A stretch of DNA of 64,000 bases, taken from Nitrosopumilus sp. (lineage in GTDB: Archaea > Thermoproteota > Nitrososphaeria > Nitrososphaerales > Nitrosopumilaceae). Positions 7,037-46,145 of the stretch are shown one piece after another (position 1 is the first letter of the stretch; each line of letters opens with the position of its first letter). The stretch is from assembly GCA_965224195.1 (NCBI GenBank), contig OZ245040.1:1632001-1696000 (forward strand), given 5' to 3'. Position numbers and translations under genes: made by a program. Below the pieces are notes generated by a model. It saw nothing but the letters and a program-made list of their open reading frames with translations. It searched no databases and was not told the DNA's origin.

Positions 7037-7992
7037 CAACTCATCTCAAAACAGATCATTTAGTGAATAATTGATGATCTATGAACAACAATATCTCAAA
7101 TCAATTCATGAAATTCAAAGAATTGACAGGCAAACAGTGGGAAATGATGGAATCATGTGTTCCTCCACCTGCAAAAACTGGCAGGCCAAGAGATGCAGAC
7201 AGAAAAATCATCAACGGAATCATTTATGTTCTGACAACTGGATGCAGATGTGATGACATGCCAAAAAAATACGGCGATGACTCCACTGCAAACAGGAGAT
7301 TAAACTCTTGGCAGCAGAAAGGAATCTGGAAAAAGATTCTCAAATGTATAACTGCATCTGCAAACAAATCAGGCAAGCTAAACCTACAAAAGATATCAGT
7401 TGACTCATCATCAATTCCTGCCAAAAAAGGGAGAGATGTCATAGGATTTGACGGATTCAAGAAAATAACAGGCACAAAAATACATGTTGCAGCAAGTAAA
7501 AGAAAGAGCTAAAGAAAGACAAAAAATACAAGAAAATAACAGGCACAAAAATACATGTTGCAGCAGGGCAAAACGGCTTGCCAGTATCAATTGTGTGCAG
7601 TCCTGCAAATATTCATGACAGTACAAAATTCATTGACGTTATGGAACCTGTTTCAGATTTTGTAGATTGTAATTCCATCAGACAGATTGTATCTTGCTTT
7701 GCAGACAAGGGCTATGATGCAAAGTACATCAGAAATTACCTGAGAGACAGCGGCATTGATTATTGCATTCCATACAAAAAGAATTCAAGGATTATTTTAC
7801 AAGACAACATACAAAATAACGGTTGCAGCAATTACAACAAGACAAGATTTGTTGTAGTGAAGAGATTCCTTGCTTGGCTGAAGAATGGATCTCATAGGAC
7901 AGGAATCAGATACGAAAAGAGCTGTGAGAATTATTTATCATTTGTTTGCTTGGCATCAATTCTGATGTATTGGGGGGTATTGGGATGAGTTG
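7037..7992 (+). mobile_element. IS5-family insertion sequence (copy 2 of family A), transposase interrupted by 71-bp insertion
   Basis: TIRs CAACTCATCTCAAAAC (7037-7052) and GTATTGGGATGAGTTG (7977-7992), 14/16 match. Transposase pieces 7081-7512 and 7578-7988 (VDSS, ADKGYD). Confidence 0.9.
7458..7565. repeat. exact 37-bp direct repeat flanking a unique 34-bp insert
   Basis: CAAGAAAATAACAGGCACAAAAATACATGTTGCAGCA at 7458-7494 and 7529-7565; insert 7495-7528. Confidence 0.95.
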
Positions 7993-8780
7993 AATATCTG
8001 TCCAAATATGTTCCAGATGGCTCATACATCAAAATACAATATTGGATACTTTCTTCAAAATTATCATTTGCAGAAATAAAGAAATTGTCATTTGAGTCAG
8101 TATCAAAGTTACGATAATTAGTAAATGTGTTACCTAGGATTGATTCTAAAGTTACAACATTTTGAATTATTCCATTTTTGTCATATGTGGTAATTACGGG
8201 TTCAAAAACAGATAATGCTTGTATATGTCCAGAATCAATTACATTAATCCAAGATCGTACTCCAAACGAAGCAATAGGAGCATAATTTTCATCAAAAAAA
8301 AATACGGCATTAGTATCAGTAACATAAACAGTTCCATCAGAAGCAACCTCAACATCAAATGGATTTTGGATTTGAGGTGTAGTTATAGTTGTTACAAAAT
8401 CACCGTCAGAATTAAAAACTAAAGTTCTAACCCCAGAGATTCTGCAAGATAGATATTTCCCAAAGAATCAGCAGCAATTCCATTCAATCCAGAATGAAGG
8501 TTATCTCAGAATTTTGTCCATCGATAAATAATATAAGATTTTTGTCTAAATCAAAAACTTGAATTCCAGTAAAATGTTGAACAGTATACAATAATCCAGA
8601 ATCATCAAGATGCATATCTGTTGCTCGAACTATTTGATCATTTTGATTAATCAAATCAAAGGTATTCAATAGATTGAATTCCAACTCTTCAGCAAATGCT
8701 TCTGAAAAACCAATAATTCCTATAGATAAAATTCCAAATAAGACAGAAAGAATGGCCTTGTTTAACATGGATATATTCAT
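7993..8780 (-). pseudogene. secreted NHL/beta-propeller surface protein, frameshifted and truncated by the IS5
   Basis: Signal peptide (…FSEAFAE). After a frameshift near 8500 it reads GIAADSLGNIYLAE, PFDVEVASDGTVYVTD (NHL-like blades) up to the IS end. Confidence 0.7.
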
Positions 8781-9020
8781 GAAAGTATGAACTTCATTTA
8801 AGGATGTTCAATCACATTAGTCATAAAATAATCAAAAAAATATCAAGTTTTAAAATCTAAATTAAACAAATGATTACTCAAGAAAGAGAGTCCTTCAAAT
8901 ATCATAATCCCCTAGTTAGAATATGATAAAAAATAACCATGGATTTTGTAATGATGTTTCTTGCAAATGTGACTGCCATGAGGGATCAAGTTTTAGAAGA
9001 GGGAATAGGAAAAGACAGTA

Positions 9021-21150: not shown

Positions 21151-21244
21151 GAAAATTATTTTCAGAATTAGTAGAAAAGGTCAAGGTAATTGTGACATAA
21201 TCACATAGCAAAGACAAAAAAATAGCTTTTGAATTAATTTAGTT

Positions 21245-21340
21245 GGACCGGTCGTCTAGTTTGGTTTGGATGACGCACTCACACTGCGTAAGGAAATTAC
21301 TTTCCCGCAAAGGTCGTGGGTTCGAATCCCATCCGGTCTA
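21245..21340 (+). tRNA. tRNA-Val(CAC) with a 21-nt BHB intron at position 44/45 (21291-21311)
   Basis: Acceptor GGACCGG/CCGGTCT-A; anticodon arm ACGCA-CTCACAC-TGCGT; T arm GTGGG-TTCGAAT-CCCAT. BHB formed by TGCG-TAA-GGAAA...TTTCC-CGCA-AAG. Removing the intron restores AGGTC. Confidence 0.9.
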
Positions 21341-21706
21341 TGTCGGTCATGGGTTTATTTACTAGAATCTACTAGGGAGTGTAGAATACCAAATAAGCTA
21401 AAGACGGTACTAAAAAGACTGGACAAACTTCCAGAGAGCCAGACAGGTATTATCTACGAGTTTAAAGGATATAAAGAAGACGAGGAGTGCTCAGAGCGTA
21501 ATGTTGTAAACTTGTTGGTGGTGTTAGAATTATTTGCACGGCATCGTGATGGGAAGAGCTTGTGTGATGTTACAAAAGAGGACATTTTGGGATTTTTGGA
21601 TCCAAGAAAAAAGTCACACGAGATAGACCCTGATGAGAAATGGAAGACTATATGGAACTATTGCCGCAACCACCTGGCAATCCTTTTACCGATGGTATAC
21701 CAATAA
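21341..21706 (+). pseudogene. N-terminal fragment of a thaumarchaeal-type integrase/recombinase, truncated by IS
   Basis: SERNVVN..., TKEDILGFLD.RKK...DPDEKWKTIWN resembles integrase N-domains; directly downstream of tRNA; ends at the IS TIR. Confidence 0.55.
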
Positions 21707-22701
21707 GTACTTTGTCGAACAAATAACAATCTGATCAACTTTATTTCATAACAATAGCTTTGGATCTCACATTCTGACCATTCTCATGGTTAACTGGAAT
21801 CAATACAATGAAAAACTAGTCAGAAGAGGCGAGATCATAATGTCATTTGATGCTATTGATAACTGGCATAAGGAATTAGAGGTCATGAATCATAATAAAA
21901 GAGGCAGAAAGTCCAGGCTGTCCTGATTCATTCATGAAATTATTGGGTTATGCGAGAATCTATTTTGGACTGCCATTCAGACAAACAGAAGGAATGATAC
22001 GTGCATATTGTAATAGAATTCCAGCAGTTCCTGATTTCACATCAATCCACAAGAGAATAAACAAGCTTGACATCAAAACTGATGATTCCATTGGAGATAA
22101 TAATGAAATCATTTTGGCAATTGACAGCACAGGAATCAAGGTTGCAAACAGGGGCAAATGGATGAGACAGAAATGGCACATGAGGAGAGGATTTCTAAAA
22201 ATCCATGCTGGTGCCGATGTCAAATCAAAGAAAATAGTTTCACTCAAAATAACAGATGATTCATCCCATGATGCTGCACATCTGCCAGAACTGGTACAGC
22301 AGGCATCACAGAAAGGAAATGTAATCAAGGTTCTAGCTGATGGCGCATATGATTCAGAAAATAATTTCTCATATCTATACCACAACACAGATGCACTCCC
22401 TGCAATCAAAGTTAGAAAGACATCATCTCTCAAAACAAAATGTTATCCGAGAAAGAAATCAGTCTTGGCTCAAATGTATAATTTGGATTTGTGGAAGCGC
22501 AGCGTTAGCTATGGGGACAGGTGGATTGCAGAGTGTGTGTTTTCAACATTCAAAAGGATGTTTGGTGAGTATGTCATGGCTCACAAAAGAAAATACATGG
22601 CAAAGGAATTAAAATTAAAAGTCGGGCCGTACAATCTGTTTGCAGGTGCTTGAGGGAATGAAATCAAAAACTAGTTGGAAATGATTTGTTCGACAGAGTA
22701 G
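21707..22701 (+). mobile_element. IS5-family (IS903-like) element (copy 1 of family B)
   Basis: TIRs TACTTTGTCGAACAAAT (21708-21724) and ATTTGTTCGACAGAGTA (22684-22700). Transposase MVNWNQYNEKLVRRG, then a frameshift into 21934-22653 (IDSTG, ADGAYD, RW..E..FS..K). Confidence 0.92.
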
Positions 22702-24040: not shown

Positions 24041-24418
24041 TTAATCCAGATCATAAAACTCCACAATATTTTCCCAAGGGCTAAAAATACTATAGTTCAT
24101 ACTTGAAGGACATTTGTCAAAGTTTTCTATTCCATTAATACCAACAGCAGCAAGTTCTTTATTATATGGCCTATGTGTATCAGTGCATAGTGTACCTTGA
24201 TGCATTCCAACAATATTTGCAGTTCCATCATCCATATGGATTATTGATCCTCCGCTATCCCCTAACATACTTGTATAATTTCCAATCATCATATCTTTAA
24301 AAACTATATTATGTTTTATAAATGTCAAATCAGTAAAATATAATATGCCATTTTTTATATTGTTTTCTTTTCCATACAAGTGTAATGAATCGCCATATTG
24401 TAATTTCGTGGAACCCAT
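24041..24418 (-). pseudogene. C-terminal fragment of trypsin-like (S1) serine protease
   Basis: GDSGGSII, IVGMH, FSPWENI; lacks N-terminal His/Asp region. Confidence 0.65.
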
Positions 24419-24587: not shown

Positions 24588-24809
24588 TCATTGCGGTGGT
24601 AGTTTATTGCCCATACACAACAACACCTCTCTATCCCATCTTTCTGGAATACACACATCTACAAGTTGATCCGTTCTACAAGTATTCCAATCATGTATTT
24701 TAGTATACTCTATATGACATTGAAAAAGATATACAATGTAAGGCGAAAAAAACAAAAAAATTGCAACTAGGACAATCATATAAATAATCTTAGTTGATAT
24801 CCAACGCAT
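24588..24809 (-). CDS. small membrane protein
   Basis: 73 aa, N-terminal TM, Cys-rich; overlaps upstream ORF stop. Confidence 0.45.
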   Translation of the reverse strand: MRWISTKIIYMIVLVAIFLFFSPYIVYLFQCHIEYTKIHDWNTCRTDQLVDVCIPERWDREVLLCMGNKLPPQ

Positions 24810-25653
24810 CTACAACATTTTCCCAAGGACTAAATATTTTGAATCGCCTATCAGCGTTTTCACAATCACGCTCATTCAATAAATCATGTGTAGACATTTT
24901 TATGCCATTATCCAATGTAATAGTACATGTTGAACCAACATGCAAACCCAATAACTGTGCGGTATTATTAACGTATTTTACAAATATAGGAGAATCACTA
25001 TCACCTCCTTGCGAATCATAATTGGCAGCTCCTTGTTTTATCAAAGTGTAATAATTATTAAAAGAACTACCAGGTATTGTATATCCCATTGTGGCAGTTA
25101 CATTGTATTGTTCCATAGTTCCACCATCATCATTATTTCTTCCTGCTATGTAAACAGGAATGGTTTTATCAACGTATGTATAACCGCCAAAGCTTGTTAT
25201 GTTAAAAATACTGTCATTGTATCGTAATTCATTTACATTAACATCAATATCAGAATTTGTAACATTAACATAAGCAACATCAGCCAGAACATTTGTACCA
25301 GAAAGAAGTGTTTTGTTGCCAAGTATATCACCTATCATGGCCTCTTGAAAACGATCTTTAAATTGACTATAACCTCCATTTTGATCCATATCACTTCGGT
25401 ATAATCCAAAGGTTATTGGATTTCTAGAAGCTTGCGGTTGCTCATAACAGACAAATTCATATTCATTATTTTTAACTTCGATAAATGTAATGTTGATAAA
25501 ATTTTCATTCCAATCTTTAATTTTTTCAGATACAAAAATAGCCTTTCCACGTTCAAAGAAATAAGGACATAATAACAAACCTTCATCATCTTCTGCATAG
25601 GCCATCCCTTCAAAATCAGGATACCATAAACTTGCAAATTCATTATTGTCCAC
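24790..25653 (-). CDS. trypsin-like protease paralog, degenerate or truncated
   Basis: ADVAYV, GGDSDSPIF, LLGLH, FSPWENV; paralogous to 24041-24418. Confidence 0.6.
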   Translation of the reverse strand: MDNNEFASLWYPDFEGMAYAEDDEGLLLCPYFFERGKAIFVSEKIKDWNENFINITFIEVKNNEYEFVCYEQPQASRNPITFGLYRSDMDQNGGYSQFKDRFQEAMIGDILGNKTLLSGTNVLADVAYVNVTNSDIDVNVNELRYNDSIFNITSFGGYTYVDKTIPVYIAGRNNDDGGTMEQYNVTATMGYTIPGSSFNNYYTLIKQGAANYDSQGGDSDSPIFVKYVNNTAQLLGLHVGSTCTITLDNGIKMSTHDLLNERDCENADRRFKIFSPWENVVDALDIN

Positions 25654-25721: not shown

Positions 25722-26306
25722 TCAAATTCTACTGAAAATATCATAATACAGTTTTGAGAACTTTATTGCTTTTTTAGCCCCTTTTTCGGCGCCACTTTCA
25801 AGAATCATCCCTTCTTCTACTTGATATATTTGGGAAATTTTACGCATTATAGAGTATTCAGAAGTTTTTGTAAAATCTCCATCATGTTTCTTATCTCGTT
25901 TTACATGAACCAAAGGATTACGCATTTTTCGTAATTTATGCAACTGAGTACTTTCCTTTATTGTGATGTATTTTTCATTTTTTGCCAAATCAATAATTTG
26001 ACTAAATCCACAAGAATTTACAAAATCTAGATTTTTCTTGTCTTCTCTTAAATCATAATATCCCCTAAACGAATGTTTCAAACCTTCTTCAAAGGTCATT
26101 TGCATCATGACGATAGTTGCAAAAAACAATCCTTCAAGCCAACAACGATGTGCTTCAAAAAAGTATTCTTGTGCAATCATTCCACCTCCTAAACGTCCCT
26201 CAAATTCAATATTCAGTGATTTCAAGAAATCATTTCTTTGTACTCTTCCTGCAAAAAGCATTTCATCGGCTTGCCTAACAATGTTTTCTGAATCAGTTTT
26301 CAACAA
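25722..26306 (-). CDS. HEPN/DUF4145-like protein
   Basis: EAHRCWLEGLFFATIVM...E..L and RNPLVH (RxxxxH) motif. Confidence 0.65.
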   Translation of the reverse strand: MLKTDSENIVRQADEMLFAGRVQRNDFLKSLNIEFEGRLGGGMIAQEYFFEAHRCWLEGLFFATIVMMQMTFEEGLKHSFRGYYDLREDKKNLDFVNSCGFSQIIDLAKNEKYITIKESTQLHKLRKMRNPLVHVKRDKKHDGDFTKTSEYSIMRKISQIYQVEEGMILESGAEKGAKKAIKFSKLYYDIFSRI

Positions 26307-26563: not shown

Positions 26564-26854
26564 TTAGGCACGGTCATTACGAGTTAAAAATTCAAGGCCC
26601 TTTTTTGTGAGTTGAATTTCATATACCATAAAAACAACAATGCCACCGATAGGTCTGTTTTTACGTCTCATGATAATTAATTGAGAATTGGACATAGCTC
26701 TTGTGACATCATACCATGAACTCATCGGTATGTCTAATTTAGCAGCGAATTCAGTAATCCAAGGATAACCATCACCAATTTTTATCAAAAAATTATTGTC
26801 AATCAAATACTCTATTAGAAATAATTTGTAATGATGATATTTCCCCTTTCGCAA
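26564..26854 (-). CDS. small winged-helix-like protein
   Basis: EFAAKLDIPMSSWY helix-turn-helix and IQLTKKGLEFL wing. Confidence 0.45.
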   Translation of the reverse strand: MRKGKYHHYKLFLIEYLIDNNFLIKIGDGYPWITEFAAKLDIPMSSWYDVTRAMSNSQLIIMRRKNRPIGGIVVFMVYEIQLTKKGLEFLTRNDRA

Positions 26855-26969: not shown

Positions 26970-28118
26970 CTATATTTTTTCTATTTGTACTAATTGATCA
27001 TACAGATAAGCTTGTTCGGGTAACAAGTTTTTTATTAATTTCTCTTCGTCACTGTCTTTCCCATATTTAATTTTCAGTTCACTCATTATGCCTTTTTTTT
27101 CTTTCATTTCCAAGCCGAAAATTCTTTTTAATTCTATCAAGATAATAGTAATTTTTTTGGAAAGATCATCTAATTCAATTTTTTTTGCAAATTTTTTCAA
27201 AACTAACTTTACAAATACATTAATCAACAAAATGTCTATTATGTGAATATATGTTGGATAACGTGCTTTACCTAACATTTCAGTTGTAAATTTACCAAGA
27301 CGCCCTTCATAGGATTTGTTTAATTTTATATGAGTATCAATTTCTAATAATCCGCTTGAAAATATACCCAAATCTGCAAGTATGACATCAAATGATGGCG
27401 GATCATTTTTAAAAAAAGATATTTCATCATTGGATATTTTTTCAAAAGCATCTATGATTTCTGGAATTAATAGTTTCTCCGAACTAGATTTTATCAATGC
27501 GGCAATATCGTAAATTTGCTTTGGCACATCAAGTCCTCCTTCAGGATCAATTCCTATTGTGTTAAATGGAAGTGTTGTTAATTTATCACCAATTAAAGAG
27601 CCATGATCATAAACAGATAAAGGGAAATTTATCGGAAGTCCTATAATTTCAATGCCATTTTTTATTTTCTTTGATTGAATATTCATGTTATTTCCATAAA
27701 AAATCTCGATTTTTAGATCTGCTTCTTCATTGATTACTGATTTATACCCACAAAAATAGGTCAACAAAGGTAATTCCTTATTACTTACTTTTTTTGGAAC
27801 GTGTGGGTCGCCAATGTCTACTATTCCTTTGAGTTTTTCTGAAACTTTTTTCATTGCCTCAATTACTTCTTCTCTAGAATTTCCAGTTACAATGTCAATA
27901 TCAACACTAAGTCGTCGTAAAGTTTTATCATGTAGATGGAAAGGAACTGCCATTCCTCCTTTAACAACACAATCTGGAATTACCTCTTGAATGTGAGTTA
28001 ATACTTCAAAATCCATGATGAATTGTTCTAATGGTAATGAATCTCTAAACCCATGAGATTCCCTAATAGTGTCAATGCCTTCTTTATTCAAAATATCTTT
28101 GAAGTGTAGTTCTACCAC
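26970..28118 (-). CDS. AbiEii/AbiGii-family nucleotidyltransferase toxin
   Basis: VVKGGMA, RRLSVDIDIV, LKIEI, LIGDKL, KQIYDI motifs. Confidence 0.85.
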   Translation of the reverse strand: MVELHFKDILNKEGIDTIRESHGFRDSLPLEQFIMDFEVLTHIQEVIPDCVVKGGMAVPFHLHDKTLRRLSVDIDIVTGNSREEVIEAMKKVSEKLKGIVDIGDPHVPKKVSNKELPLLTYFCGYKSVINEEADLKIEIFYGNNMNIQSKKIKNGIEIIGLPINFPLSVYDHGSLIGDKLTTLPFNTIGIDPEGGLDVPKQIYDIAALIKSSSEKLLIPEIIDAFEKISNDEISFFKNDPPSFDVILADLGIFSSGLLEIDTHIKLNKSYEGRLGKFTTEMLGKARYPTYIHIIDILLINVFVKLVLKKFAKKIELDDLSKKITIILIELKRIFGLEMKEKKGIMSELKIKYGKDSDEEKLIKNLLPEQAYLYDQLVQIEKI

Positions 28119-30034
28119 TAAAATTCAGATCCCAAAATTTTTTTAACTAATTCTGATTTTTTGATAAAATTTGCATAAGTTTGCAAATTTTCATAATTAA
28201 TCAAAGTAGATCTTTTCATTGTTGCAAATATTCGTCTCAACTCTGAATTATCGAGTGGACCATTATGACTATGCGTTTCATTTACTAAATCAAGAAATGC
28301 TTTTTCAGGAGCAGCAATAGTAGACCCTCTAATTACGGCGTATTCTCTTATTGAAATAATTCTTTCAGTGGCAGGCATTTTTAGAAACACGTCTAACGCT
28401 TTTTTATCTGGCGCATATATAATAGTAAATTTTTCGTGGAATTTTTCTGCTAATAGCTCTGAAAGATATTCTCCTTTCTCAGGTTCGGTGTAAAGTGTAT
28501 AGATTATTTTCCCACGTGAGTTATGCAAATAGGGTGTAAGAGTAGATAACGCGGTAAATTGAAATTTGAATCCAAAGTTTTCTTTAAGATAGTCATGGAC
28601 TTCAACTAATTCATCGGTTAATTTGTAATTCGGAATATTTGGGATTTTTACTTCCCTCTCCCTAAAAATTTCTTTTTTATTGCTTTTTTCTGACCATGTG
28701 TTTAAAAATTCTTTGATATCATAATTTCTCTTTTCTATTAATTTTTCAAAGTTTGGATTTTCTCCAATCAATTTTATTTCTGAAGCAATTATTCCAATTA
28801 GGAATAAAGGATTTTTTACAAATCCAAATGCTTCATCGTCTTTATTTATTGTTACTTTGATCTTCGAATTTTGTTTTTCTATAATGTATAATGGCTCATT
28901 TTTGAGGGATTTTATGCCTATTTTCATCAAACTATTTCCTACTTTTGTCTCAAAAGGTTCAGTATTATCCAATAATTCTTGTGAAGTTTTTGAACGTACA
29001 CTACGCTCAAGATATTGTGCAGAAGATTTCTTAGTAAAATAATCAAATACAGATTCAACAGATACAGTGTTTTCACTTTTAGATTTTGATGATTGTATTA
29101 TTTGTTTGAATTCAAGAGAGGATCTGAAAACATTAACTGCTTTTTCATATTCTTGACTTTCTTCAATGAATGCACTTTTGTTAAAGTTTACAGGGACATG
29201 ATCTAAATTTAATTCTCCAATTATCTTTGCATTTTCAGGATGTGGAGGAAATCCAAATTTTTCATATGCTTTTATCAGTCTTCCATTTCTAAATAAATGA
29301 AGTCCATAGTGTCCCTTTATAGAACGTTTTTTTAGTAATGCAACATAACCGTTAATTTTTTTTCCAAAATCTAATTCAATCTGTATATTTTTTTTAGTTC
29401 CGTCTACAATGTTAGGTTTTGAAGGTTTGCAAAAAACCGTATTAATTTGAATTGAAATTTGTTCTGTATTCAAATAAGGAAAATATCGTATACCAAAACT
29501 TTCTTTGAATTTTGAAACTTGGTTGGGATATAATGGTACATTTAATTCAGAAATTATAATTCTCGTCCCATGCCAATTTTCTTCATCCGTTAAAGTTTTT
29601 TCAGTGACAACAAAATTTTTCCAGTTTTGTGTGTCATCAGATAACCAATTTTTTTCATCATACTCTGCAGAATATTCTTTATTAGAATTAATTTTAGATG
29701 TAATAATAATAAATTTTTTTCCCAATGCAGAACATGCACTTTTCATTCCAATCCCAAATTGTCCTAATTCACCATCAATTTTTGTTCCCTTTGCAATAGT
29801 CATTGCATTTGTAAGGTCTTGTTTATCCATACCAGAACCATCATCTCTTATTCCGATCCATTTTTTTTGAAAATCTAAATGAATATCGATTATTTCTTTT
29901 TCATCAGAAATTCTTGCATCAATAGAATTATCTAGCAATTCAGCAACTGCTTGTTCTGTCCGATACCCAACAAGACCTAGTTTTTGGATAAGGGACTTGT
30001 CTGGAGTGATATCTACATGAAAATTATTATCCAT
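28118..30034 (-). CDS. GHKL (MORC-like HATPase_c_3) ATPase fused to a C-terminal AbiEi-like domain
   Basis: AELLDNSIDA, DDGSGMD, GQFGIGMKSA, HGTRI and RNGRLI (S5-like). C-terminal STIAAPEKAFLDL resembles the AbiEi CTD. Stop overlaps the AbiEii start. Confidence 0.8.
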   Translation of the reverse strand: MDNNFHVDITPDKSLIQKLGLVGYRTEQAVAELLDNSIDARISDEKEIIDIHLDFQKKWIGIRDDGSGMDKQDLTNAMTIAKGTKIDGELGQFGIGMKSACSALGKKFIIITSKINSNKEYSAEYDEKNWLSDDTQNWKNFVVTEKTLTDEENWHGTRIIISELNVPLYPNQVSKFKESFGIRYFPYLNTEQISIQINTVFCKPSKPNIVDGTKKNIQIELDFGKKINGYVALLKKRSIKGHYGLHLFRNGRLIKAYEKFGFPPHPENAKIIGELNLDHVPVNFNKSAFIEESQEYEKAVNVFRSSLEFKQIIQSSKSKSENTVSVESVFDYFTKKSSAQYLERSVRSKTSQELLDNTEPFETKVGNSLMKIGIKSLKNEPLYIIEKQNSKIKVTINKDDEAFGFVKNPLFLIGIIASEIKLIGENPNFEKLIEKRNYDIKEFLNTWSEKSNKKEIFREREVKIPNIPNYKLTDELVEVHDYLKENFGFKFQFTALSTLTPYLHNSRGKIIYTLYTEPEKGEYLSELLAEKFHEKFTIIYAPDKKALDVFLKMPATERIISIREYAVIRGSTIAAPEKAFLDLVNETHSHNGPLDNSELRRIFATMKRSTLINYENLQTYANFIKKSELVKKILGSEF

Positions 30035-30096
30035 ATGAAAAGAACTTAAATCTAGAATTTAAGACTTTTTCTCGTTTTATGCTCATTTGAGCCTGC

Positions 30097-30161
30097 ATAT
30101 ACAGTATATACAATTTGTATATACTGTATATATCTAGAAAATATTGGTTTTTCTAGATATA
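30097..30161. promoter_or_regulatory. two abutting perfect inverted repeats upstream of the GHKL-AbiE operon
   Basis: ATATACAGTATATACAA-T-TTGTATATACTGTATAT (17-bp arms, 30097-30131) and TATATCTAGAAAA-N7-TTTTCTAGATATA (13-bp arms, 30129-30161). Confidence 0.6.
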
Positions 30162-30259: not shown

Positions 30260-30415
30260 TTATTCATCATAATCTTCTTCATCTAATTCACTTTCGGAAA
30301 TCATACGTCCATAATCATCACAATCAAAATTAGCACATTCATAAAAGTCAAAAGGACTTTTATTCATTGGCTTTCCACATGATTCACAAATTGCCAATAT
30401 AACCCAAGGAGACAT
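30260..30415 (-). CDS. 51-aa Zn-finger microprotein with acidic tail
   Basis: MSPWVILAICESCGKPM...YECANFDC...EEDYDE; not in ORF track. Confidence 0.55.
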   Translation of the reverse strand: MSPWVILAICESCGKPMNKSPFDFYECANFDCDDYGRMISESELDEEDYDE

Positions 30416-30981: not shown

Positions 30982-31713
30982 TTATAATCCTTGTAATGAT
31001 TTTTTGAGTTTAACAATTTCTTCTTTTAACATTTCTTTATTTTCTGTAAAATGATTTGGTGTAACTTTTGCGATATCATCAAGATGTTGTTGATATCCCA
31101 TAATTTTGAGTACTGAAGTTGCGCGTTCCAAAGTATCATTTGCTTTTGCAAGTTTTTCTTCATAATTTTCCATCATTTTTTTAGTGTCCTCTATTTTTTC
31201 ATCAAATTCTGTTGCGGATTGAATTCCTAACGGCTTTCCACATTTAGAACAAATTTTAGCATCTGGAGCATTTGGTACCTCACAGATATGACAGATTTGA
31301 GGCGTTTCAACCAAATTTCCTGTTTCTTTACGCTTGATTCCATAGTGATTCAATATGACATTTTCAACATCAGCATTAATCATGTGAACATATCTGGCAG
31401 GCATTTTTGACGAGTTAGACCAACCATGTCGTTTACGAAGTTGAGCTTCAGTCATAAAATTAGCAGATTCAGTAGCTTCTGAATGTCTAAATAATTTCAT
31501 GTTGATTTTCTTTGGCAATCCTGCAATGGTACATCTACGTGCAAGCATTTGTCGCGATGCACTGCAGGATAATGGTTCTCTAAACTTTTTCGGACTAGTA
31601 TTAATCCACAAAGGGGAATCAGGATTATCCCTCATAGGATGAGTGTTAATCCAAGAAGACAGATTAGATACTGAACGAATTAATCGAATAGGTCTAGGAC
31701 CTGTTTTTCCATC
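30982..31713 (-). pseudogene. tyrosine recombinase/integrase, C-terminal half with Zn ribbon; 5' part missing
   Basis: DGKTGPR upstream in frame, LFRHSEAT, HGW, ARYVH, CHIC...CSKCGKP. Confidence 0.85.
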
Positions 31714-33529: not shown

Positions 33530-36500
33530 CTATTTCTTTTTCATTATTTCAAAATAATAAACAATGACAGCAAACACAACGACAAAAAATATTATGGAAA
33601 TTATTAGTAATTCACTCATCGATAGTTTAGGTGCAACAGGTTCAGGTGTTGGTTCAGGTGTGTATACAGGTTCAGGTGTGTATACAGGTTCAGGTGTTGG
33701 TTCAGGTGTGTATACAGGTTCAGGTGTTGGTTCAGGTGTATATACAGGTTCAGGTGTTGGTTCAGGTGTTGGTTCAGGTGTTGGTTCAGGTGTTGGTTCA
33801 GGTGTGTATACAGGTTCTGGTGTTAGCTCTGGTGTTGGTTCCGGTGTTGGCTCTGGTGCTCTGACAGATGATGGCCTGTTGTCCCTGCCGACAATGTCCT
33901 TTAACAGTTCATCCAAATTCATATTATCATAATGTACTATGCCAGGCAGTTCCTTCAGTATGATGTGGCCATCACAGTATGCCGCAGCAGATTCTACCTG
34001 TGCCTGTTTTTGTGATTTGTCGTAACTTTTTATCGACATTACATTTTCAGAAAGCATCTCTAAACCCTCAAAGCTAAACGCATATAGAGAGATTGGCACA
34101 TGCACGGACTTGAAAAGATCTTTCATGCTGGCCTGGGATGTCACATCAATGCCAACATTGGATGGATGCCCGTCTAAGACAATGGAGGCGCCAAGGTTGT
34201 CCCCATATGTACCTGCAACTAATACCACATCATTTTCCAGTCCGCACTGGTTGTACAGCAGTAGTATTGGACTCATTGTAAAACCTACAGAGCCGCTGCT
34301 GCTGCCACGGTCAGCAGGCTGTGGTGTAGTAGGTTTTGGTGTGATGGGTTTTGGTGTGATGGGTTTTGGTGGCAAGGCATCCTCTGGTATTTCTTTAGGA
34401 GTGCTGTCAATTACTGCAGTATCTAGTTCAACACTGACTGCATCTTCAATGACAATAGGATCCCTTACGGCAAGTACTAGGCTGTCATCCTTCTTCACCA
34501 CATCTGCACCATCTGATGTTGGAATGTCATCAGCTAGTGACTTGGTGTGCTGCACTGCCGTGCTATCAGGTGTCAAGCTGGTATTCTTTGTCACATCCAC
34601 GCCGTCTGATGTTGGAATATTGTCAGCCAGTGATTTGACATATTGTTTGGTTACAGAGATATCATCTGATGTTGGGATAGTATCAGCTGGTGACTTGGTG
34701 TGCTGTTCTATTACAGCGCCAGGTGTCAAGTTGGTATTCTTTGTTACAGAGATACCATCTGATGTTGGGATAGTATCAGCTAGTGATTTGACATATTGTT
34801 TGGTTACAGAGATATCATCTGATGTTGGGATAGTATCAGCTAGTGACTTGGTGTGCTGTTCTATTACAGCGCCAGGTGTCAAGTTGGTATTCTTTGTTAC
34901 AGAGATACCATCTGATGTTGGGATAGTATCAGCTAGTGATTTGACATATTGTTTGGTTACAGAGATATCATCTGATGTTGGGATAGTATCAGATGGAGAT
35001 ATGGCATACAGTTTCACTACATCTGCATTGTCCCTTGTTGGGATGTCATCAGCTGGAGATATTGCATATAGTTTCACCACATCTGCACCATCTGATGTTG
35101 GGATGTCATCAGATATGGATTTGACATATTGTTTGGTTACAGAGATACCATCAGATGTTGGGATGGTGTCAGCTGCTGAGCTGGCATATAGTTTCACTAC
35201 ATCTGCACCATCTGATGTTGGGATGTCATCAGATATGGATTTGACATATTGTTTGGTTACAGAGATACCATCTGATGTTGGGATGGTGTCAGATGGAGAT
35301 ATGGCATATAGTTTCACCACATCTGCACCATCTGATGTTGGGATGGTGTCAGATATAGATCTAGAGTACCGCTTTACCACATCCGCATCATCTGATGTTG
35401 GGACGATGTCAGATGGAGATATGGCATATAGTTTCACCACATCTGCACCATCTGATGTTGGGATGGTGTCAGCTGCAGATATTGCGTACCGCTTTACCAC
35501 ATCTGCACCATCTGATGTTGGGATGTCATCAGCTGGAGATATTGCATATAGTTTCACCACATCTGCATTGTCCCTTGTTGGGATGTTATCAGATATGGAT
35601 CTAGAGTACCGCTTTACCACATCTGCACCATCTGATGTTGGGATGTCATCAGCTGGAGATATTGCATATAGTTTCACCACATCTGCATTGTCCTTTGTTG
35701 GGATGTCATCAGATATGGATTTGACATATTGTTTGGTTACAGAGATACCATCAGATGTTGGGATGGTGTCAGCTGCTGAGCTGGCATATAGTTTCACTAC
35801 ATCTGCACCATCTGATGTTGGGATGTCATCAGATATGGATTTGACATATTGTTTGGTTACAGAGATACCATCTGATGTTGGGATGGTGTCAGCTGCTGAG
35901 CTGGCATATAGTTTCACTACATCTGCACCATCTGATGTTGGGATGGTGTCAGATATAGATCTAGAGTACCGCTTTACCACATCCGCATCATCTGATGTTG
36001 GAGCTTCGTCAGATGGAGATATGGCATATAGTTTCACCACATCTGCATTGTCCCTTGTTGGGATGTTATCAGATATGGATCTAGAGTACCGCTTTACCAC
36101 ATCTGCACCATCTGATGTTGGAGCTTCGTCAGCTGGAGATATTGCATATAGTTTCACCACATCTGCACCATCTGATGTTGGGATGGTGTCAGCTGCAGAT
36201 ATTGCGTACCGCTTTACCACATCCGCATCATCTGATGTTGGGATGGTGTCAGATGGAGATATGGCATATAGTTTCACCACATCTGCATTGTCCTTTGTTG
36301 GGATGTTATCAGATATGGATTTGACATATTGTTTGGTTACAGAGATACCATCTGATGTTGGGATGGTGTCAGCTGCTGAGCTGGCATATAGTTTCACTAC
36401 ATCTGCACCATCTGATGTTGGGATGTCATCAGATATGGATTTGACATATTGTTTGGTTACAGAGATATCATCAGATGTTGGAGCTTCATCAGCTGGAGAT

Positions 36501-39500
36501 ATGACATATAGTTTCACTACATCTGCATTGTCCCTTGTTGGGATGTCATCAGATATGGATCTAGAGTACCGCTTTACCACATCAACATCATCTGATGTTG
36601 GAGCTTCATCAGCTGGAGATATGGCATATAGTTTCACTACATCTGCATTGTCCCTTGTTGGGATGTTATCAGATATGGATCTAGAGTACCGCTTTACCAC
36701 ATCTGCACCATCTGATGTTGGGATGTCATCAGCTGGAGATATTGCATATAGTTTCACCACATCTGCATTGTCCCTTGTTGGGATGTTATCAGATATGGAT
36801 CTAGAGTACCGCTTTACCACATCTGCACCATCTGATGTTGGGATGTCATCAGCTGGAGATATTGCATATAGTTTCACCACATCTGCATTGTCCCTTGTTG
36901 GGATGTTATCAGATATGGATCTAGAGTACCGCTTTACCACATCTGCACCATCTGATGTTGGGATGTCATCAGCTGGAGATATTGCATATAGTTTCACCAC
37001 ATCTGCACCATCTGATGTTGGGATGTCATCAGCTAGTGATTTGACATATTGTTTGGTTACAGAGATATCATCAGATGTTGGGATGGTGTCAGCTGCTGAG
37101 CTGGCATATAGTTTCACTACATCTGCACCATCTGATGTTGGGATGTCATCAGATATGGATTTGACATATTGTTTGGTTACAGAGATACCATCTGATGTTG
37201 GGATGGTGTCAGATGGAGATATGGCATATAGTTTCACTACATCTGCACCATCTGATGTTGGGATGTCATCAGATATGGATCTAGAGTACCGCTTTACCAC
37301 ATCCGCATCATCTGATGTTGGAGCTTCGTCAGATGGAGATATGGCATATAGTTTCACTACATCTGCATTGTCCCTTGTTGGGATGTTATCAGATATGGAT
37401 CTAGAGTACCGCTTTACCACATCTGCACCATCTGATGTTGGAGCTTCGTCAGCTGGAGATATTGCATATAGTTTCACCACATCTGCATTGTCCCTTGTTG
37501 GGATGTTATCAGATATGGATCTAGAGTACCGCTTTACCACATCTGCACCATCTGATGTTGGGATGTCATCAGCTGGAGATATTGCATATAGTTTCACCAC
37601 ATCTGCATTGTCCTTTGTTGGGATGTTATCAGATATGGATTTGACATATTGTTTGGTTACAGAGATATCATCAGATGTTGGGATGGTGTCAGCTGCTGAG
37701 CTGGCATATAGTTTCACTACATCTGCACCATCTGATGTTGGGATGTCATCAGATATGGATTTGACATATTGTTTGGTTACAGAGATACCATCTGATGTTG
37801 GGATGGTGTCAGCTGCTGAGCTGGCATATAGTTTCACCACATCTGCACCATCTGATGTTGGGATGTCATCAGATATGGATCTAGAGTACCGCTTTACCAC
37901 ATCTGCACCATCTGATGTTGGAGCTTCGTCAGATGGAGATATGGCATATAGTTTCACCACATCTGCATTGTCCCTTGTTGGGATGTTATCAGATATGGAT
38001 CTAGAGTACCGCTTTACCACATCTGCACCATCTGATGTTGGAGCTTCGTCAGCTGGAGATATGGCATATAGTTTCACCACATCTGCACCATCTGATGTTG
38101 GGATGGTGTCAGCTGCAGATATTGCGTACCGCTTTACCACATCCGCATCATCTGATGTTGGGATGGTGTCAGATGGAGATATGGCATATAGTTTCACCAC
38201 ATCTGCATTGTCCTTTGTTGGGATGTTATCAGATATGGATTTGACATATTGTTTGGTTACAGAGATACCATCTGATGTTGGGATGGTGTCAGCTGCTGAG
38301 CTGGCATATAGTTTCACTACATCTGCACCATCTGATGTTGGGATGTCATCAGATATGGATTTGACATATTGTTTGGTTACAGAGATATCATCAGATGTTG
38401 GAGCTTCGTCAGATGGAGATATGGCATATAGTTTCACTACATCTGCATTGTCCCTTGTTGGGATGTTATCAGATATGGATCTAGAGTACCGCTTTACCAC
38501 ATCAACATCATCTGATGTTGGAGCTTCATCAGCTGGAGATATGACATATAGTTTCACTACATCTGCATTGTCCCTTGTTGGGATGTCATCAGATATGGAT
38601 CTAGAGTACCGCTTTACCACATCAACATCATCTGATGTTGGAGCTTCGTCAGATGGAGATATGGCATATAGTTTCACCACATCTGCATTGTCCCTTGTTG
38701 GGATGTTATCAGATATGGATCTAGAGTACCGCTTTACCACATCTGCACCATCTGATGTTGGGATGTCATCAGCTGGAGATATTGCATATAGTTTCACCAC
38801 ATCTGCATTGTCCCTTGTTGGGATGTTATCAGATATGGATCTAGAGTACCGCTTTACCACATCTGCACCATCTGATGTTGGGATGTCATCAGCTGGAGAT
38901 ATTGCATATAGTTTCACCACATCTGCACTGTCCCTTGTTGGGATGTCATCAGATATGGATTTGACATATTGTTTGGTTACAGAGATATCATCAGATGTTG
39001 GGATGGTGTCAGCTGCTGAGCTGGCATATAGTTTCACTACATCTGCACCATCTGATGTTGGGATGTCATCAGATATGGATTTGACATATTGTTTGGTTAC
39101 AGAGATACCATCTGATGTTGGGATGGTGTCAGCTGCTGAGCTGGCATATAGTTTCACTACATCTGCACCATCTGATGTTGGGATGTCATCAGATATGGAT
39201 CTAGAGTACCGCTTTACCACATCTGCACCATCTGATGTTGGAGCTTCGTCAGATGGAGATATGGCATATAGTTTCACTACATCTGCATTGTCCCTTGTTG
39301 GGATGTTATCAGATATGGATCTAGAGTACCGCTTTACCACATCTGCACCATCTGATGTTGGAGCTTCGTCAGCTGGAGATATTGCATATAGTTTCACCAC
39401 ATCTGCATTGTCCCTTGTTGGGATGTCATCAGATATGGATCTAGAGTACCGCTTTACCACATCTGCACCATCTGATGTTGGGATGTCATCAGATATGGAT

Positions 39501-42207
39501 CTAGAGTACCGCTTTACCACATCTGCACCATCTGATGTTGGGATGTCATCAGCTGGAGATATTGCATATAGTTTCACCACATCTGCACTGTCCCTTGTTG
39601 GGATGTCATCAGATATGGATTTGACATATTGTTTGGTTACAGAGATATCATCAGATGTTGGGATGGTGTCAGCTGCTGAGCTGGCATATAGTTTCACTAC
39701 ATCTGCACCATCTGATGTTGGGATGTCATCAGATATGGATTTGACATATTGTTTGGTTACAGAGATACCATCTGATGTTGGGATGGTGTCAGATGGAGAT
39801 ATGGCATATAGTTTCACCACATCTGCACCATCTGATGTTGGGATGTCATCAGATGGAGATATTGCATATAGTTTCACCACATCTGCATTGTCCCTTGTTG
39901 GGATGTTATCAGATATGGATCTAGAGTACCGCTTTACCACATTGACTGCGTCCTTTGATGGAGCTGCATCAGATGGAGATATTGCATATAGTTTCACTAC
40001 ATCTGCACCATCTGATGTTGGGATGGTGTCAGCTGCAGATATTGCGTACCGCTTTACCACATTGACTGCGTCCTTTGATGGAGCTGCATCAGATACCCAT
40101 TGAAGAAGCTCAAAAGGTTGCAGGATCTCCACATCAACTGCGTCCTTTGATGGAGCTGCATCAGATACCCATTGAAGAAGCTCAAAAGGTTGCAGGACCT
40201 CCACATCAACTGCGTCCTTTGATGGAGCTGCATCAGATACCCATTGAAGAAGCTCAAAAGGTTGCAGGACCTCCACATCAACTGCGTCCTTTGATGAAAC
40301 TGCATCAGATACCCATTGAAGAAGCTCAAAAGGTTGCAGGACCTCCACATCAACTGCGTCCTTTGATGGAGCTGCATCAGATACCGAGCTGGTATATAGT
40401 TTTACCACATCCGCATCATCTGATGTTGGAGCTGTATCAGATGGAGATATTGCATGCCGCTTTACCACATCCGCATCATCTGATGTTGGAGCTGTATCAG
40501 ATGGAGATATTGCATACCGCTTTACCACATCCGCATCATCTGATGTTGGAGCTGTATCAGATGTAGACATGGCATGATCACCACTTCGATACAAAACAAC
40601 CAGAGTAGTAGATTCATCATTTAAATTTCCGCTTAGGTCACTAACAGCTCCTGGTGACATGAAAAGATACCTTAAATCATGTAAAATTAATTCAAGTAGT
40701 TGCTTCTTTTTTATTGTGATTGATAAATCCGTACCATTACCAACTTTATTTATCTTAGCCTTGGAAAGTACAACGTCATTACCTTTCCCATCACCCAAAA
40801 ACATTTTTGACAAATCTGTCTTGTCAATATGTATCGGCTCATCAAATTTGATTCCAAGAGTCCTAGTTGTTTTATCTAATTTTACAGGGTATGGCAACTT
40901 GTGAACATCAATTATATATACATCAGTATCAGAATCAGATGATGTAACTATCGCATAAATTTTATCACCAATTTCAAATGTACTGGCTTTTGCCTGATTA
41001 GGAATTGTTGTTACAACACTTACAAGTAATGGTTCATATGGATTACTCACATCAAATGTTGACACAGCATCAGATGCAGTAACTATCGCATAAATTTTAT
41101 CACCAATTTCAGATATATTGACTCCACTTAGATGATTAAAAGAAAGATAATATTCATTATATATCGCGTCTACATGTTTAGGTTTTTTCGGGTTACTCAC
41201 ATCAATTATTGACGCAGCATCATCATCAGATGCAGTAACTATCGCATAAATTTTATCACCAATTTCAAATGTTGCAACTCCGCTTGCACCACCAGTTGCA
41301 GGCGTATAACTGGTTATCTCACGTACTAGTTTAGGTTTTTTCGGGTTACTCACATCAATTATTGACGCAGCATCATCATCAGATGCAGTAACTATCGCAT
41401 AAATTTTATCACCAATTTCAAATGTTGCAACTCCACTTGCGCCACCAAGGCTGTTAAACTTTTTTGGATTAGCAACAAAACTAGCAGGAGGGTTTACTGG
41501 TGTTCGTTCATCTATTGCAGATCCTATATGCTGCAAATCTTTGGGATTAGAAACATCAAATAAATAAATACCGCTTTCACGACCCTCATAACATTGTTTA
41601 GTAATTTGATTACAAGTCCTACTAGGGATACCCTCGTCGTGAACTGAAAATATTGCATACTGTTTAGATTTGATTTTAAAAATATTGACATCAGTGAATT
41701 GTGGGTAAGGGTATACGCCATAATCTATTTCATGCTGCTTGATAATAGTTGGCTTTTTCAGGTTTGTTATATCCACTGTAAATATATTATCTTCATCATT
41801 CAAGCCCGCTAACGCATAGATGTTATTTTCAATATAATAGACTGCAACTACCCCCCCCCCCAAATCACTGTTGTTATTGCCAGGAAACATCATCGTACTA
41901 ACAAACAAAGGGTTCAGAGGATCACTGACATCATAAAAAATCAAAGATTTGCGATTGGTATCTTCTACACCAATATTTGCAGTTAACAAAAGGGCATATG
42001 TTTTCTTGTTTATGTCATCAGTAACTATTGCAACATCATTTACATGCAAAACATTGTGTGATAAAATAATTTCACTAACAAAATCCTCATGCGTTATTAT
42101 GGATGGCTTTTTTATGTCAGTAGAGACTTGGGCGTTTACATCAATTACACCATAACTTAATACGACGACGACGGTAATAAAAAACAGAATTTAATTCTAG
42201 AAAACAT
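33530..42207 (-). CDS. giant cell-surface protein: signal peptide, LVIVD-type beta-propeller, ~100 tandem 20-24-aa repeats, Pro-rich linkers, C-terminal TM anchor
   Basis: ORF 33530-42049 is open upstream to about 42190. One added base joins it to ATG 42207 (MFSRIK..FFITVVVVLSYGVIDVNAQ). IIDVSNP repeats; EPTP linker; TM plus KKK at the C-terminus. Confidence 0.88.
33637..33860. repeat. 12/18-bp tandem repeats encoding the EPTP/EPVYTP linker
   Basis: (GGTTCAGGTGTT)n interspersed with GGTTCAGGTGTGTATACA. Confidence 0.9.
34490..40565. repeat. coding tandem array: about 86 consecutive 60-bp units plus longer variant units at both ends
   Basis: 60-nt lines align in register from about 34920 to 40080; four 69-bp units at about 40090-40380; conserved core CATCTGATGTTGG. 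Confidence 0.97.
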
Positions 42208-45241: not shown

Positions 45242-46145
45242 GGCGATTATGCATCTATTGCCCCTAGCATATACTTCAACAATAGATCAAACAATTTACA
45301 ATCTCTATTGTTGTATCTCCATTCCATTTCTTTGATGTACAACAAAAACTTTCTTGGACTTGCTCCGTGATGCTTTGCCATATTCTCTTTTGCAAAACTC
45401 CAAAACCCCTCAATGCCGTTGATGTATACGTTACCTTTTCCAAACATCTTGCTGTGATCTATTGCGAGATGTTTGTAGCCGTTGAATACAAGTGAGTCAT
45501 ATCTCTTCCACTTGTCAGTATACACGATGCTGCCTTTCTTGACTTTTCTAATCGTACTTTTCAGAAGAGTTTTGGCTTTGACGTTATTTACAATCTCAAC
45601 ATGTACCTTGCCATTTCTCTCTAAAATTCCAAATACAATTGTCTTGTTTTTGGCACCTCTGCCACGATTTCCCTTTCTTCTGCCTCCAAAATACGCCTCA
45701 TCAGCCTCAATTTTTCCTTTCAGAACCTTGTCTGTCTTTGCCAGTTCCTCAAGTATTGAATACCTGATTGTATCAAATGCTTTCAAGGTGGTCTTGTAGC
45801 TTGGACGTACCTGTTCTGATGCAGTCTTTGCAGAAACTGACAGCTCAAAGAGCTTGATTAGTGAGAGCCATGTGGAATATGGAATTCTAATCAAAGAGAA
45901 CTTTGATGCAGAAAACGGTTTGAAATCTTTCTGACATTTTGTGCATCTCATTCTGTCTCTGCTTTTCATGGTGTAGAGAGTTTTGTTTTTGCAGAAAGGA
46001 CAGGGAATATTCTTAGTGTATTTTGATTCTAGGGATTGTATTGGCAATGATTCATCAGAGATTATTTTTGCAAATGATACAAAGTCCATCCAACATTGTT
46101 GAAAATTATTCCATAATAATTAGGGGCAGTAGATATCCAATCACC
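45242..46145 (-). mobile_element. IS1595-family element, apparently intact
   Basis: 25-bp imperfect TIRs (GGCGATTATGCATCTATTGCCCCTA and TAGGGGCAGTAGATATCCAATCACC); 8-bp TSD AAAAAATT on both sides. Confidence 0.93.
45247..46089 (-). CDS. IS1595-family transposase
   Basis: CPFC...CTKC Zn finger, EADEAYFGG, YTD, INGIEGFWS, KEMEWRYN. Confidence 0.95.
   Translation of the reverse strand: MDFVSFAKIISDESLPIQSLESKYTKNIPCPFCKNKTLYTMKSRDRMRCTKCQKDFKPFSASKFSLIRIPYSTWLSLIKLFELSVSAKTASEQVRPSYKTTLKAFDTIRYSILEELAKTDKVLKGKIEADEAYFGGRRKGNRGRGAKNKTIVFGILERNGKVHVEIVNNVKAKTLLKSTIRKVKKGSIVYTDKWKRYDSLVFNGYKHLAIDHSKMFGKGNVYINGIEGFWSFAKENMAKHHGASPRKFLLYIKEMEWRYNNRDCKLFDLLLKYMLGAIDA

Follow-up and report, generated by a model that had tools for sequence, protein, structure and literature searches.

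What is accomplished by a MORC-type ATPase whose C terminus is related to the antitoxin of an abortive-infection system and whose gene directly precedes that of the corresponding toxin? This question is raised by a gene pair within a 64,000-nucleotide (nt) stretch of a Nitrosopumilus sp. genome (assembly GCA_965224195.1, contig OZ245040.1, positions 1,632,001 to 1,696,000), hereafter the window, in whose numbering all coordinates are given and in which both genes are located on the minus strand. The domain homologies of the two products, the operon structure, the conservation and co-inheritance of the pair, and the intactness of the catalytic residues in both enzymes were established computationally in this study. 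The explanation to which we lean, with slightly more confidence than doubt, is that the pair represents an AbiE-type two-gene toxin-antitoxin (TA) or abortive-infection module, the rebuilt antitoxin of which would be controlled by an ATPase switch.

Domain composition of the MORC-AbiEi fusion protein and its AbiEii partner

The first gene (28118 to 30034, minus strand, ATG start) encodes a 638-amino-acid (aa) MORC-AbiEi fusion protein and occupies the antitoxin position, while the second (26970 to 28118, minus strand, GTG start) encodes a 382-aa nucleotidyltransferase of the AbiEii (DUF1814) type, the presumed toxin. A single base is common to the stop codon of the former and the start codon of the latter (...TTT TAG TG G...), as read in the sequence TAGTG at positions 28116 to 28120 (minus strand), and the order is thus bicistronic, with the antitoxin-type gene first and the toxin gene directly after it. 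Two coupled open reading frames (ORFs) with an overlapping stop and start had been described in an earlier note on this DNA, and both this layout and the motifs quoted there, AELLDNSIDA, GSTIAAPEKAFLDL, and SVDIDIV, were recovered, the latter in the ORF translations. The closest relatives of the fusion gene reside in Nitrosopumilus genomes (identity of up to 87%), and the 638-aa architecture recurs in at least 120 protein clusters (query coverage of 71 to 100%, identity of 43 to 99%), 118 of those listed covering 96 to 100% of the query and one of those listed being named Acidoferrales. At the sequence level, the family matches of both proteins lie far beyond chance.

The N-terminal two-fifths or so of the 638-aa protein is assigned, from its profile matches, as a MORC-type ATPase consisting of a GHKL core and an S5 domain. 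Residues 24 to 126 (29657 to 29965, minus strand) match the GHKL ATP-binding core family HATPase_c_3 (Pfam E value, 4.7e-21), and residues 227 to 301 (29132 to 29356, minus strand) match the S5-fold domain of MORC modules, Morc6_S5 (Pfam E value, 7.5e-5), with a score (23.3 bits) that is under the cut-off of 26.2 bits in this protein but is surpassed by several of its relatives. When compared with solved structures, a single-sequence phmmer search and a Protein Data Bank (PDB) search with a family profile of 114 full-length homologs both placed the eukaryotic proteins MORC4, MORC3, and MORC2 first (E values of 1e-18 to 1e-8 in the latter search, where chains of Hsp90, MutL, and topoisomerases rank after the MORC chains). 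The family profile aligns both the GHKL core and the S5 stretch to MORC structures, including positions 237 to 306 to the S5 region of MORC4, and the phmmer and profile matches also extend into S5 in MORC3 and MORC4. Among the 114 homologs, D35, N36, D64, G68, G91, G94, G96, and G156 are invariant, while E32, G66, T157, and the S5 lysine K286 (in NFNKS) are conserved in at least 90%. Because these ATP-motif residues and the S5 lysine are conserved, the module is predicted to bind and hydrolyze ATP, and the full set of GHKL motifs followed by an S5-like region, which the earlier note had recognized from the sequence, is upheld by the family models and by the 114-homolog alignment. The ATPase module is separated from the C-terminal domain by a conserved middle region (residues ~302 to 454; 28673 to 29131, minus strand), belonging to no known family, in which Y383, F403, N408-P409, E419, and R436-N437 form conserved motifs; a Pfam search of this region at an E value of ≤1 returned nothing beyond one chance-level match. 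No DNA-binding domain was recognized by Pfam in either the whole 638-aa protein or its middle region, nor did AbiEi_4 or any other helix-turn-helix family match the 638-aa protein.

Residues 455 to 638 (28121 to 28672, minus strand) are assigned as a DUF6577-like, AbiEi-type C-terminal domain without a winged helix, based on Pfam, PADLOC, and hhalign comparisons and on an AlphaFold2 (AF2) model searched with Foldseek. In the whole protein, Pfam DUF6577 (PF20217) matches residues 471 to 634 (E value, 0.0015; 18.7 bits against a gathering cut-off of 27.8 bits), the match of the domain alone spanning positions 34 to 198 of the 204 profile positions; the same family matches 29 of 51 homologous fused domains at an E value of ≤1 (best, 1.5e-7) and is precomputed on some full-length homologs of the fusion protein, while the models AbiEi_1, AbiEi_2, and AbiEi_3 match none of the 51 domains. 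The PADLOC AbiEi model PDLC02235 matches residues 455 to 638 over profile positions 70 to 235 of 240, together with 26 of the 51 fused domains and each of 36 stand-alone proteins (best E value, 2e-48). These stand-alone relatives became apparent from a search of 1.84 billion representative proteins with a profile of the 51 domains, which produced 212 matches at an E value of ≤0.001; the 150 that were listed include 26 fused forms (619 to 676 aa) and many stand-alone proteins of 230 to 310 aa in which the domain is C-terminal. When the C-terminal profile was used in a word-indexed search, only seven proteins were retrieved, apparently pieces of the fused form.

Among 51 stand-alone proteins, the DUF6577 match begins at about profile position 1 in 47, and an AbiEi_4 winged helix is located at the N terminus of 22, in 9 of which it scores above the cut-off. 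Alignment by hhalign of the fused domain to 36 stand-alone proteins (probability, 99.9%; E value, 4e-35) pairs fused positions 14 to 182 with stand-alone positions 87 to 253, which is to say everything beyond the winged helix; TIAAPEKAFLDL of the fusion protein is the counterpart of a block, ASxERAxVDLYFE, in the stand-alone family, and both alignments show the aspartate of this block to be invariant. As the fused domain aligns exactly to the part of the stand-alone proteins that follows the winged helix, and as the MORC module occupies the N terminus, the module does take the place of the winged helix, a substitution that the earlier note had anticipated. The genes of the stand-alone family have a comparable context: tblastn with one DUF6577 member identified four plasmid loci (in, for example, Hymenobacter, Bernardetia, and Chondrinema), in all four of which the gene immediately downstream is annotated as an AbiEii/AbiGii toxin, with a 4-nt overlap in three.

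The AF2 model of the C-terminal domain is confident (predicted local distance difference test score, 88; predicted template modeling [TM] score, 0.85), and its Foldseek match in the PDB with the highest probability and TM-score is the Streptococcus agalactiae AbiEi 6y8q (probability, 0.77; TM-score, 0.43; E value, 0.11), with Rv2827c (1zel) also among the highest TM-scores (0.42; E value, 0.29). Judging from the profile comparisons, we regard the C-terminal domain as firmly homologous to AbiEi antitoxins of the DUF6577 branch, and the similarity of its model to the two solved AbiEi structures as no more than suggestive. The AbiEi-like C terminus suspected in the earlier note is accordingly confirmed by the hhalign alignment and the PDLC02235 match, with the Foldseek matches to 6y8q and 1zel being weak.

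The 382-aa product of the second gene matches the AbiEii models of both Pfam (E value, 1.1e-11; 45.6 bits against a cut-off of 22.5 bits) and PADLOC (PDLC02299; E value, 5.6e-22), in agreement with its earlier designation as an AbiEii-type nucleotidyltransferase. In an alignment of 34 AbiEii partners, G54, G55, R69, S71, D73, D75, K179, K200, and D204 are invariant and, with the exception of S71, correspond to motifs I to IV; the +DxxD pattern of motif IV is represented solely by its K and its second D (KQIYD). Mutation of motifs I to IV of the S. agalactiae AbiEii abolished both toxicity and GTP binding (PMC3985639), and the 382-aa protein is predicted, from its intact catalytic residues, to be a competent AbiEii toxin. 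As for its control, the C-terminal domain of AbiEi was described as sufficient for neutralization (PMC3985639), and a recent preprint (10.64898/2026.01.19.700257) describes that binding of AbiEi to AbiEii results in auto-phosphorylation of the latter, the phospho-acceptor of the studied protein being Thr65, and in loss of nucleotidyltransferase activity, both AbiEii and MenT toxins being shut off by phosphorylation at a T65-type position. The spacing of S71 to R69, D73, and D75 in the protein studied here equals that of T65 to R63, D67, and D69.

Conservation, co-inheritance, and decay of the gene pair

A genome scan, in which one genome per species was retained, yielded 78 loci, comprising 54 with the C-terminal domain (by tblastn), 5 that are cut by a contig end or are remnants (L037, L041, L071, L077, and L078), and 19 in which only the first ~320 residues are matched. 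The 54 fused loci belong mostly to Nitrosopumilaceae (Nitrosopumilus, Cenarchaeum, and other members), with one each in Nitrososphaera and Dehalococcoidia. AbiEii is encoded directly downstream of the fused gene in 45 of the 54, including the bacterial locus (L030, Dehalococcoidia), and the two-gene architecture described in the earlier note is indeed conserved. The other nine comprise a locus that stops at a contig end (L015), a truncated locus (L032), one in which AbiEii is located ~640 nt upstream on the same strand (L042), and six orphans in which the fused gene is intact and neither tblastn nor Pfam revealed an AbiEii within 5 kb (L005, L021, L031, L035, L036, and L073). At L042, which belongs to Cenarchaeum, the upstream gene (2728 to 4182 of that locus) encodes a 484-aa AbiEii-domain protein, and a convergent NUDIX gene is located downstream. 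Of the 44 junctions examined (the 45 paired loci minus L048), most contain a possible AbiEii start codon no more than 8 nt ahead of, or 7 nt beyond, the point at which the upstream stop codon ends.

None of the ORFs that flank the pair in the window recurs in any of the 78 loci, and the conserved unit therefore consists of the two genes only. The 19 loci matched over the first ~320 residues (identity of 32 to 41%) derive from candidate-phyla bacteria, DPANN archaea (Woesearchaeota and Micrarchaeota), Actinomycetota, and others; in the 16 of these for which ORFs were called, they encode MORCs of ~500 to 550 aa, several of which adjoin genes for Eco57I or type ISP methylases, PC4-like, DnaA_C+sigma-r4, GmrSD, SduA, or AIPR proteins. 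Linkage to a helicase, nuclease, or methylase gene is not retained around the fused gene and was observed only at these ~500- to 550-aa MORCs, which do not possess the AbiEi domain. Among 19 plasmid and 3 phage records, none provided a match covering at least 80% of the fused protein, and a tblastn search of plasmids with the 382-aa AbiEii returned no match.

Across 33 pairs, the pairwise identity of the C-terminal domain is correlated with that of AbiEii (Pearson coefficient of 0.86, a value attained in 0 of 2,000 permutations), which indicates that the fused gene and AbiEii travel together. Where the pair has decayed, it is predominantly the downstream gene that is affected: AbiEii is truncated or interrupted, with the upstream gene whole, in 8 of the 44 loci (L006, L010, L018, L026, L027, L028, L040, and L069), and in two of these, both from Nitrosopumilaceae, it is split by an insertion of ~1.4 to 1.5 kb with the fusion gene intact (L010, ~7417 to 8794; L027, ~7236 to 8744). 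The reverse was encountered once, in L050, where the toxin gene is intact and the fused gene harbors a single frameshift 49 codons from its end; the codons past this frameshift can be followed in a different frame as far as the start of AbiEii, and it may represent an assembly error. This asymmetry of decay fits toxin and antitoxin roles for the two products.

Two copies are present in many Nitrosopumilus and Cenarchaeum genomes. Altogether, the fused gene occurs as two diverged copies in twelve genomes, the loci falling roughly into a set that is closest to the window (>50% identity) and a second set at ~35 to 45% (L002/L022, L003/L023, L011/L031, L010/L025, L029/L034, L036/L039, L044/L045, L046/L048, L013/L042, L067/L073, L018/L050, and L016/L020), which are located on one chromosome or contig in ten genomes and, for L016/L020, on two contigs of one assembly.

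Proposed mechanism and competing explanations

The neutralization, switching, and sensing steps of the proposed module are inferred by analogy with the S. agalactiae AbiEi-AbiEii and MenA-MenT pairs. In resting cells, residues 455 to 638 of the fusion protein would bind AbiEii and keep it inactive, probably through induced auto-phosphorylation of AbiEii Ser71. MORC relatives dimerize on ATP and work on DNA, and the MORC module is envisaged as an ATP-driven switch which, in answer to an infection cue (foreign DNA, a phage protein, or a nucleotide state), would withdraw or disable the antitoxin domain; the released AbiEii would then block translation and growth of the infected cell. A more specific version, which we put forward tentatively and to which we attach appreciably less confidence, is that the MORC ATPase itself acts as the infection sensor, its ATP-driven dimerization on an invader cue, such as foreign DNA, freeing the translation-blocking AbiEii. 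Dimerization would in such a case either mechanically pull the tethered AbiEi domain off AbiEii or end the upkeep of Ser71 phosphorylation.

Several findings weigh against an AbiE-type module with an ATPase-controlled antitoxin. The per-sequence matches of the C-terminal domain alone are modest, both to DUF6577 (24.9 bits against the cut-off of 27.8 bits; E value, 1.9e-5) and to the PADLOC AbiEi model (E value, 1.7e-5), and a PADLOC scan of the full-length 638-aa protein gave no AbiEi match; the Foldseek likeness to solved AbiEi is weak, with nothing at an E value of ≤0.001, and a hidden Markov model (HMM) search of PDB sequences with the domain profile returned chance-level matches only and no AbiEi chain. 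The correlation of identities is a sign of co-inheritance and is no proof of contact or physical co-evolution. The shorter MORC relatives have restriction-modification-like contexts, which the MORC-AbiEi pair does not. Finally, in 14 loci (the 8 with broken AbiEii and the 6 orphans), the fused gene persists although no intact toxin accompanies it, and the MORC protein may have a toxin-independent function besides that proposed here.

This last observation also bears on a different explanation, which we consider improbable, namely, that the MORC-AbiEi protein acts chiefly by itself or together with partners encoded elsewhere, for instance in DNA surveillance, as an ATPase akin to its restriction-linked relatives, with AbiEii being a dispensable accessory effector. 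In addition to the 14 loci without an intact toxin, the presence of two copies in many genomes and the 32 to 41% identity of the N-terminal ~320 residues to MORCs beside Eco57I or type ISP methylases, GmrSD, SduA, or AIPR are in keeping with such independence. However, the sole known role of the C-terminal domain is that of an AbiEii partner, and the domain stays conserved, with AbiEii being the next gene in 45 of 54 loci; moreover, the fused gene has no consistent linkage to a nuclease, helicase, or methylase gene, and the genes that flank it in the window are not conserved elsewhere. We place as little weight on the possibility that the GHKL module, anchored through the AbiEi domain, is a dedicated kinase that itself transfers phosphate from ATP to Ser71 of AbiEii, in the manner of GHKL-fold serine kinases acting on their substrates, instead of simply inducing auto-phosphorylation. 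Protein kinases are known within the GHKL superfamily, and S71 is invariant in the 34 aligned partners, at a position equivalent to that at which AbiEii and MenT toxins are described as being switched off by phosphorylation (preprint 10.64898/2026.01.19.700257). Yet the same preprint describes a toxin that phosphorylates itself and an antitoxin that binds no nucleotide, and the module in question, with its S5 domain and the conserved lysine therein, belongs to the MORC type; among solved structures, MORC ATPases are closest to it, followed by Hsp90 and MutL rather than by kinases.

A further alternative, which we consider unlikely although less so than the preceding two, is that of an ordinary addiction-type AbiE pair whose MORC module would merely take over from the winged helix the role of DNA-binding autoregulator, repressing the operon from the upstream palindromes, employing ATP only for DNA clamping, and sensing no infection. 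The winged helix of AbiE is described as serving autorepression at inverted repeats (PMC3985639), and the region 60 to 130 nt upstream of the fusion start codon harbors two adjacent perfect palindromes (30097 to 30161), with 17-bp arms at 30097 to 30131 (ATATACAGTATATACAA/TTGTATATACTGTATAT) and 13-bp arms at 30129 to 30161 (TATATCTAGAAAA/TTTTCTAGATATA), surrounded by TCTAGA boxes, an observation which also takes in positions 30037 to 30071. The TCTAGA boxes and a TATAC..GTATA core are retained upstream of the fused gene in seven close loci. The palindromes have the appearance of a candidate operator, though the antitoxin is without a recognizable DNA-binding domain, and because these upstream elements are conserved, some protein probably still regulates the operon. 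A scan for sigma-70 promoters found 28 against 27 expected, with 0 terminators, and is uninformative; the host is, in addition, an archaeon. The low-GC stretch around the pair, furthermore, contains a transposase gene and an integrase fragment, and stabilizing modules are common in such DNA. Against mere autoregulation, an ATPase of ~450 residues, with catalytic residues that are invariant in 114 homologs, would be a costly stand-in for a winged helix of 60 residues, and the absence of any recognized DNA-binding domain from the 638-aa protein is likewise difficult to reconcile with such a role.

Genomic surroundings, known systems, and implications

The pair is located in a region of reduced G+C content (0.29 to 0.32 at 24 to 32 kb, compared with 0.34 to 0.37 at 18 to 24 kb), which is flanked by a tRNA-Val gene and an insertion sequence (IS)-type transposase gene on one side and by an integrase C-terminal fragment on the other. 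The tRNA-Val gene (21244 to 21341) likely contains an intron, as it is 98 nt long, and is followed by a DDE_Tnp_1 transposase gene (21934 to 22653); the integrase fragment, which includes a zinc ribbon, is encoded at 30982 to 31635, and an IS1595-type transposase gene is present at 45247 to 46089. An integrated element extending from the tRNA-Val gene (21.2 kb) to the integrase fragment (31 kb) was considered and rejected, no convincing attachment site-like direct repeat having been found. Between the integrase-side genes and the operon, an ORF of ~50 codons (~30262 to 30415, minus strand) displays CxxC and C..C spacing like that of a zinc ribbon.

Just downstream of AbiEii, two minus-strand genes (26564 to 26854 and 25722 to 26306, respectively) encode a 96-aa YjcQ-like winged-helix protein (Pfam E value, 4e-5) and a 194-aa protein, the latter of which harbors the string RNPLVH (Rx4H), weakly matches the PADLOC model CARF_HEPN (E value, 0.014), and may represent a separate HEPN-type defense or TA gene. 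Both proteins, together with the other flanking ORFs, were ruled out as parts of the system, as none recurs in the 78 loci. Farther downstream, two neighboring minus-strand ORFs (24041 to 24418 and 24790 to 25653) share a C-terminal FSPWEN..D block and a GDSGG/GDSDSP serine-protease-like motif (direct repeat D3); Pfam detected no family above its cut-off in either, and their products may be divergent secreted chymotrypsin-like proteases. On the opposite side of the operon, a giant ORF (33530 to 42049, minus strand; G+C content of 0.43, above that of its surroundings) specifies a 2,839-aa product, probably a surface protein, that is composed mostly of ~17-residue tandem repeats (..SDDIPTSDGADVVKLYA..) and also has a stalk rich in PEPT and a hydrophobic anchor at its C terminus.

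With respect to described systems, the pair most closely resembles AbiE of S. agalactiae and Lactococcus (type IV TA, with type VII having been proposed), with which it shares the bicistronic antitoxin-first order, a DUF1814 toxin that has motifs I to IV and, at the site of the phospho-acceptor, a residue with a hydroxyl group, and the AbiEi C-terminal domain, as recognized by PADLOC models and by Foldseek, which has the AbiEi fold among its matches of highest probability. It differs in that the AbiE antitoxin possesses an N-terminal winged helix (AbiEi_4/COG5340), in place of which the fusion protein has ~450 residues of MORC GHKL, S5, and linker sequence, while its C-terminal domain is of the DUF6577 subtype, its full-length form escapes the PADLOC AbiEi models, and its hosts are mainly Nitrosopumilaceae. 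The stand-alone AbiEi_4+DUF6577 antitoxins are homologous over the whole length of the C-terminal domain and have the same gene order with AbiEii, but are proteins of 230 to 310 aa with an N-terminal winged helix and no ATPase. In MenA/MenT of Mycobacterium tuberculosis, a DUF1814-family toxin is described as neutralized via antitoxin-induced phosphorylation (preprint 10.64898/2026.01.19.700257); the Rv2827c-type antitoxin structure 1zel ranks high by TM-score (0.42) among the Foldseek matches of the fusion C-terminal domain, whereas no sequence likeness is detectable by HMM search and the antitoxin is devoid of an ATPase.

Prokaryotic MORCs have been placed in a restriction-modification-like context (Iyer, Abhiman, and Aravind 2008, PMC2292703), and these proteins share the GHKL and S5 domains, with all ATP motifs, at 32 to 41% identity over ~320 residues; in contrast, the partner of the fusion protein is a TA-type nucleotidyltransferase, its C terminus is an antitoxin-type domain, and no helicase, nuclease, or methylase gene is linked to it. 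The main text of PMC2292703 makes no mention of a nucleotidyltransferase, toxin, COG2253, or COG5340. GHKL/GHL ATPases also participate in phage defense as MzaB (of the MZA anti-phage system) and Tiamat (GHL ATPase and nuclease), the partners and C-terminal domains of which are different. Membership of MzaB/MZA was ruled out, as only the ATP-binding core matches: the NCBIfam MzaB equivalog is matched over residues 16 to 119 with 45.4 bits against a cut-off of 850, and the PADLOC MzaB model over residues 15 to 114.

The available text of the 2026 Tiamat preprint, which does not contain the term AbiE, still refers to prokaryotic MORCs as proposed restriction-like factors, and a 2026 domain-centric screen mentions neither AbiE nor MORC nor GHKL. 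An AbiE-family Pfam match was noted, without further comment, in a paper on sponge Thaumarchaeota. In the literature searched, which included DUF6577 and had supplements and subscription papers outside its scope, no link of MORC or GHKL to AbiE, AbiEii, or DUF1814 was encountered. The pair as such, consequently, matches no system already named, since the full-length PADLOC scan recognizes the AbiEii half only and no literature link was found. The suggestion of the earlier note that it constitutes an undescribed archaeal defense system stands insofar as no description was found and its carriers are mainly archaeal; it does not stand in full, given the Dehalococcoidia locus, the Acidoferrales cluster, and the evident relationship to AbiE. 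The pair is best described as an AbiE variant with a putatively MORC-gated antitoxin rather than as a wholly new system. As a full-length PADLOC scan would not call a complete AbiE, inventories of archaeal defense systems probably undercount it.

AbiE/MenAT modules are among the most widespread TA/abortive-infection modules, and the family described here is common in ammonia-oxidizing archaea. The presence of a large, catalytically intact ATPase on a neutralizing domain points to a concrete, mutable switch for infection sensing and toxin release. To date, it is only from gene context that a role in restriction-like systems has been proposed for prokaryotic MORCs; the output of this MORC would be readable, through a single, well-understood partner, as growth arrest or toxin phosphorylation. 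Should the MORC ATPase prove to be the infection sensor, it would be the first ATPase of the MORC family to be coupled to an effector other than a nuclease, and the pair would be an ATPase-gated type VII TA system, offering a simple two-protein model for the manner in which MORC conformational cycles are turned into an output.

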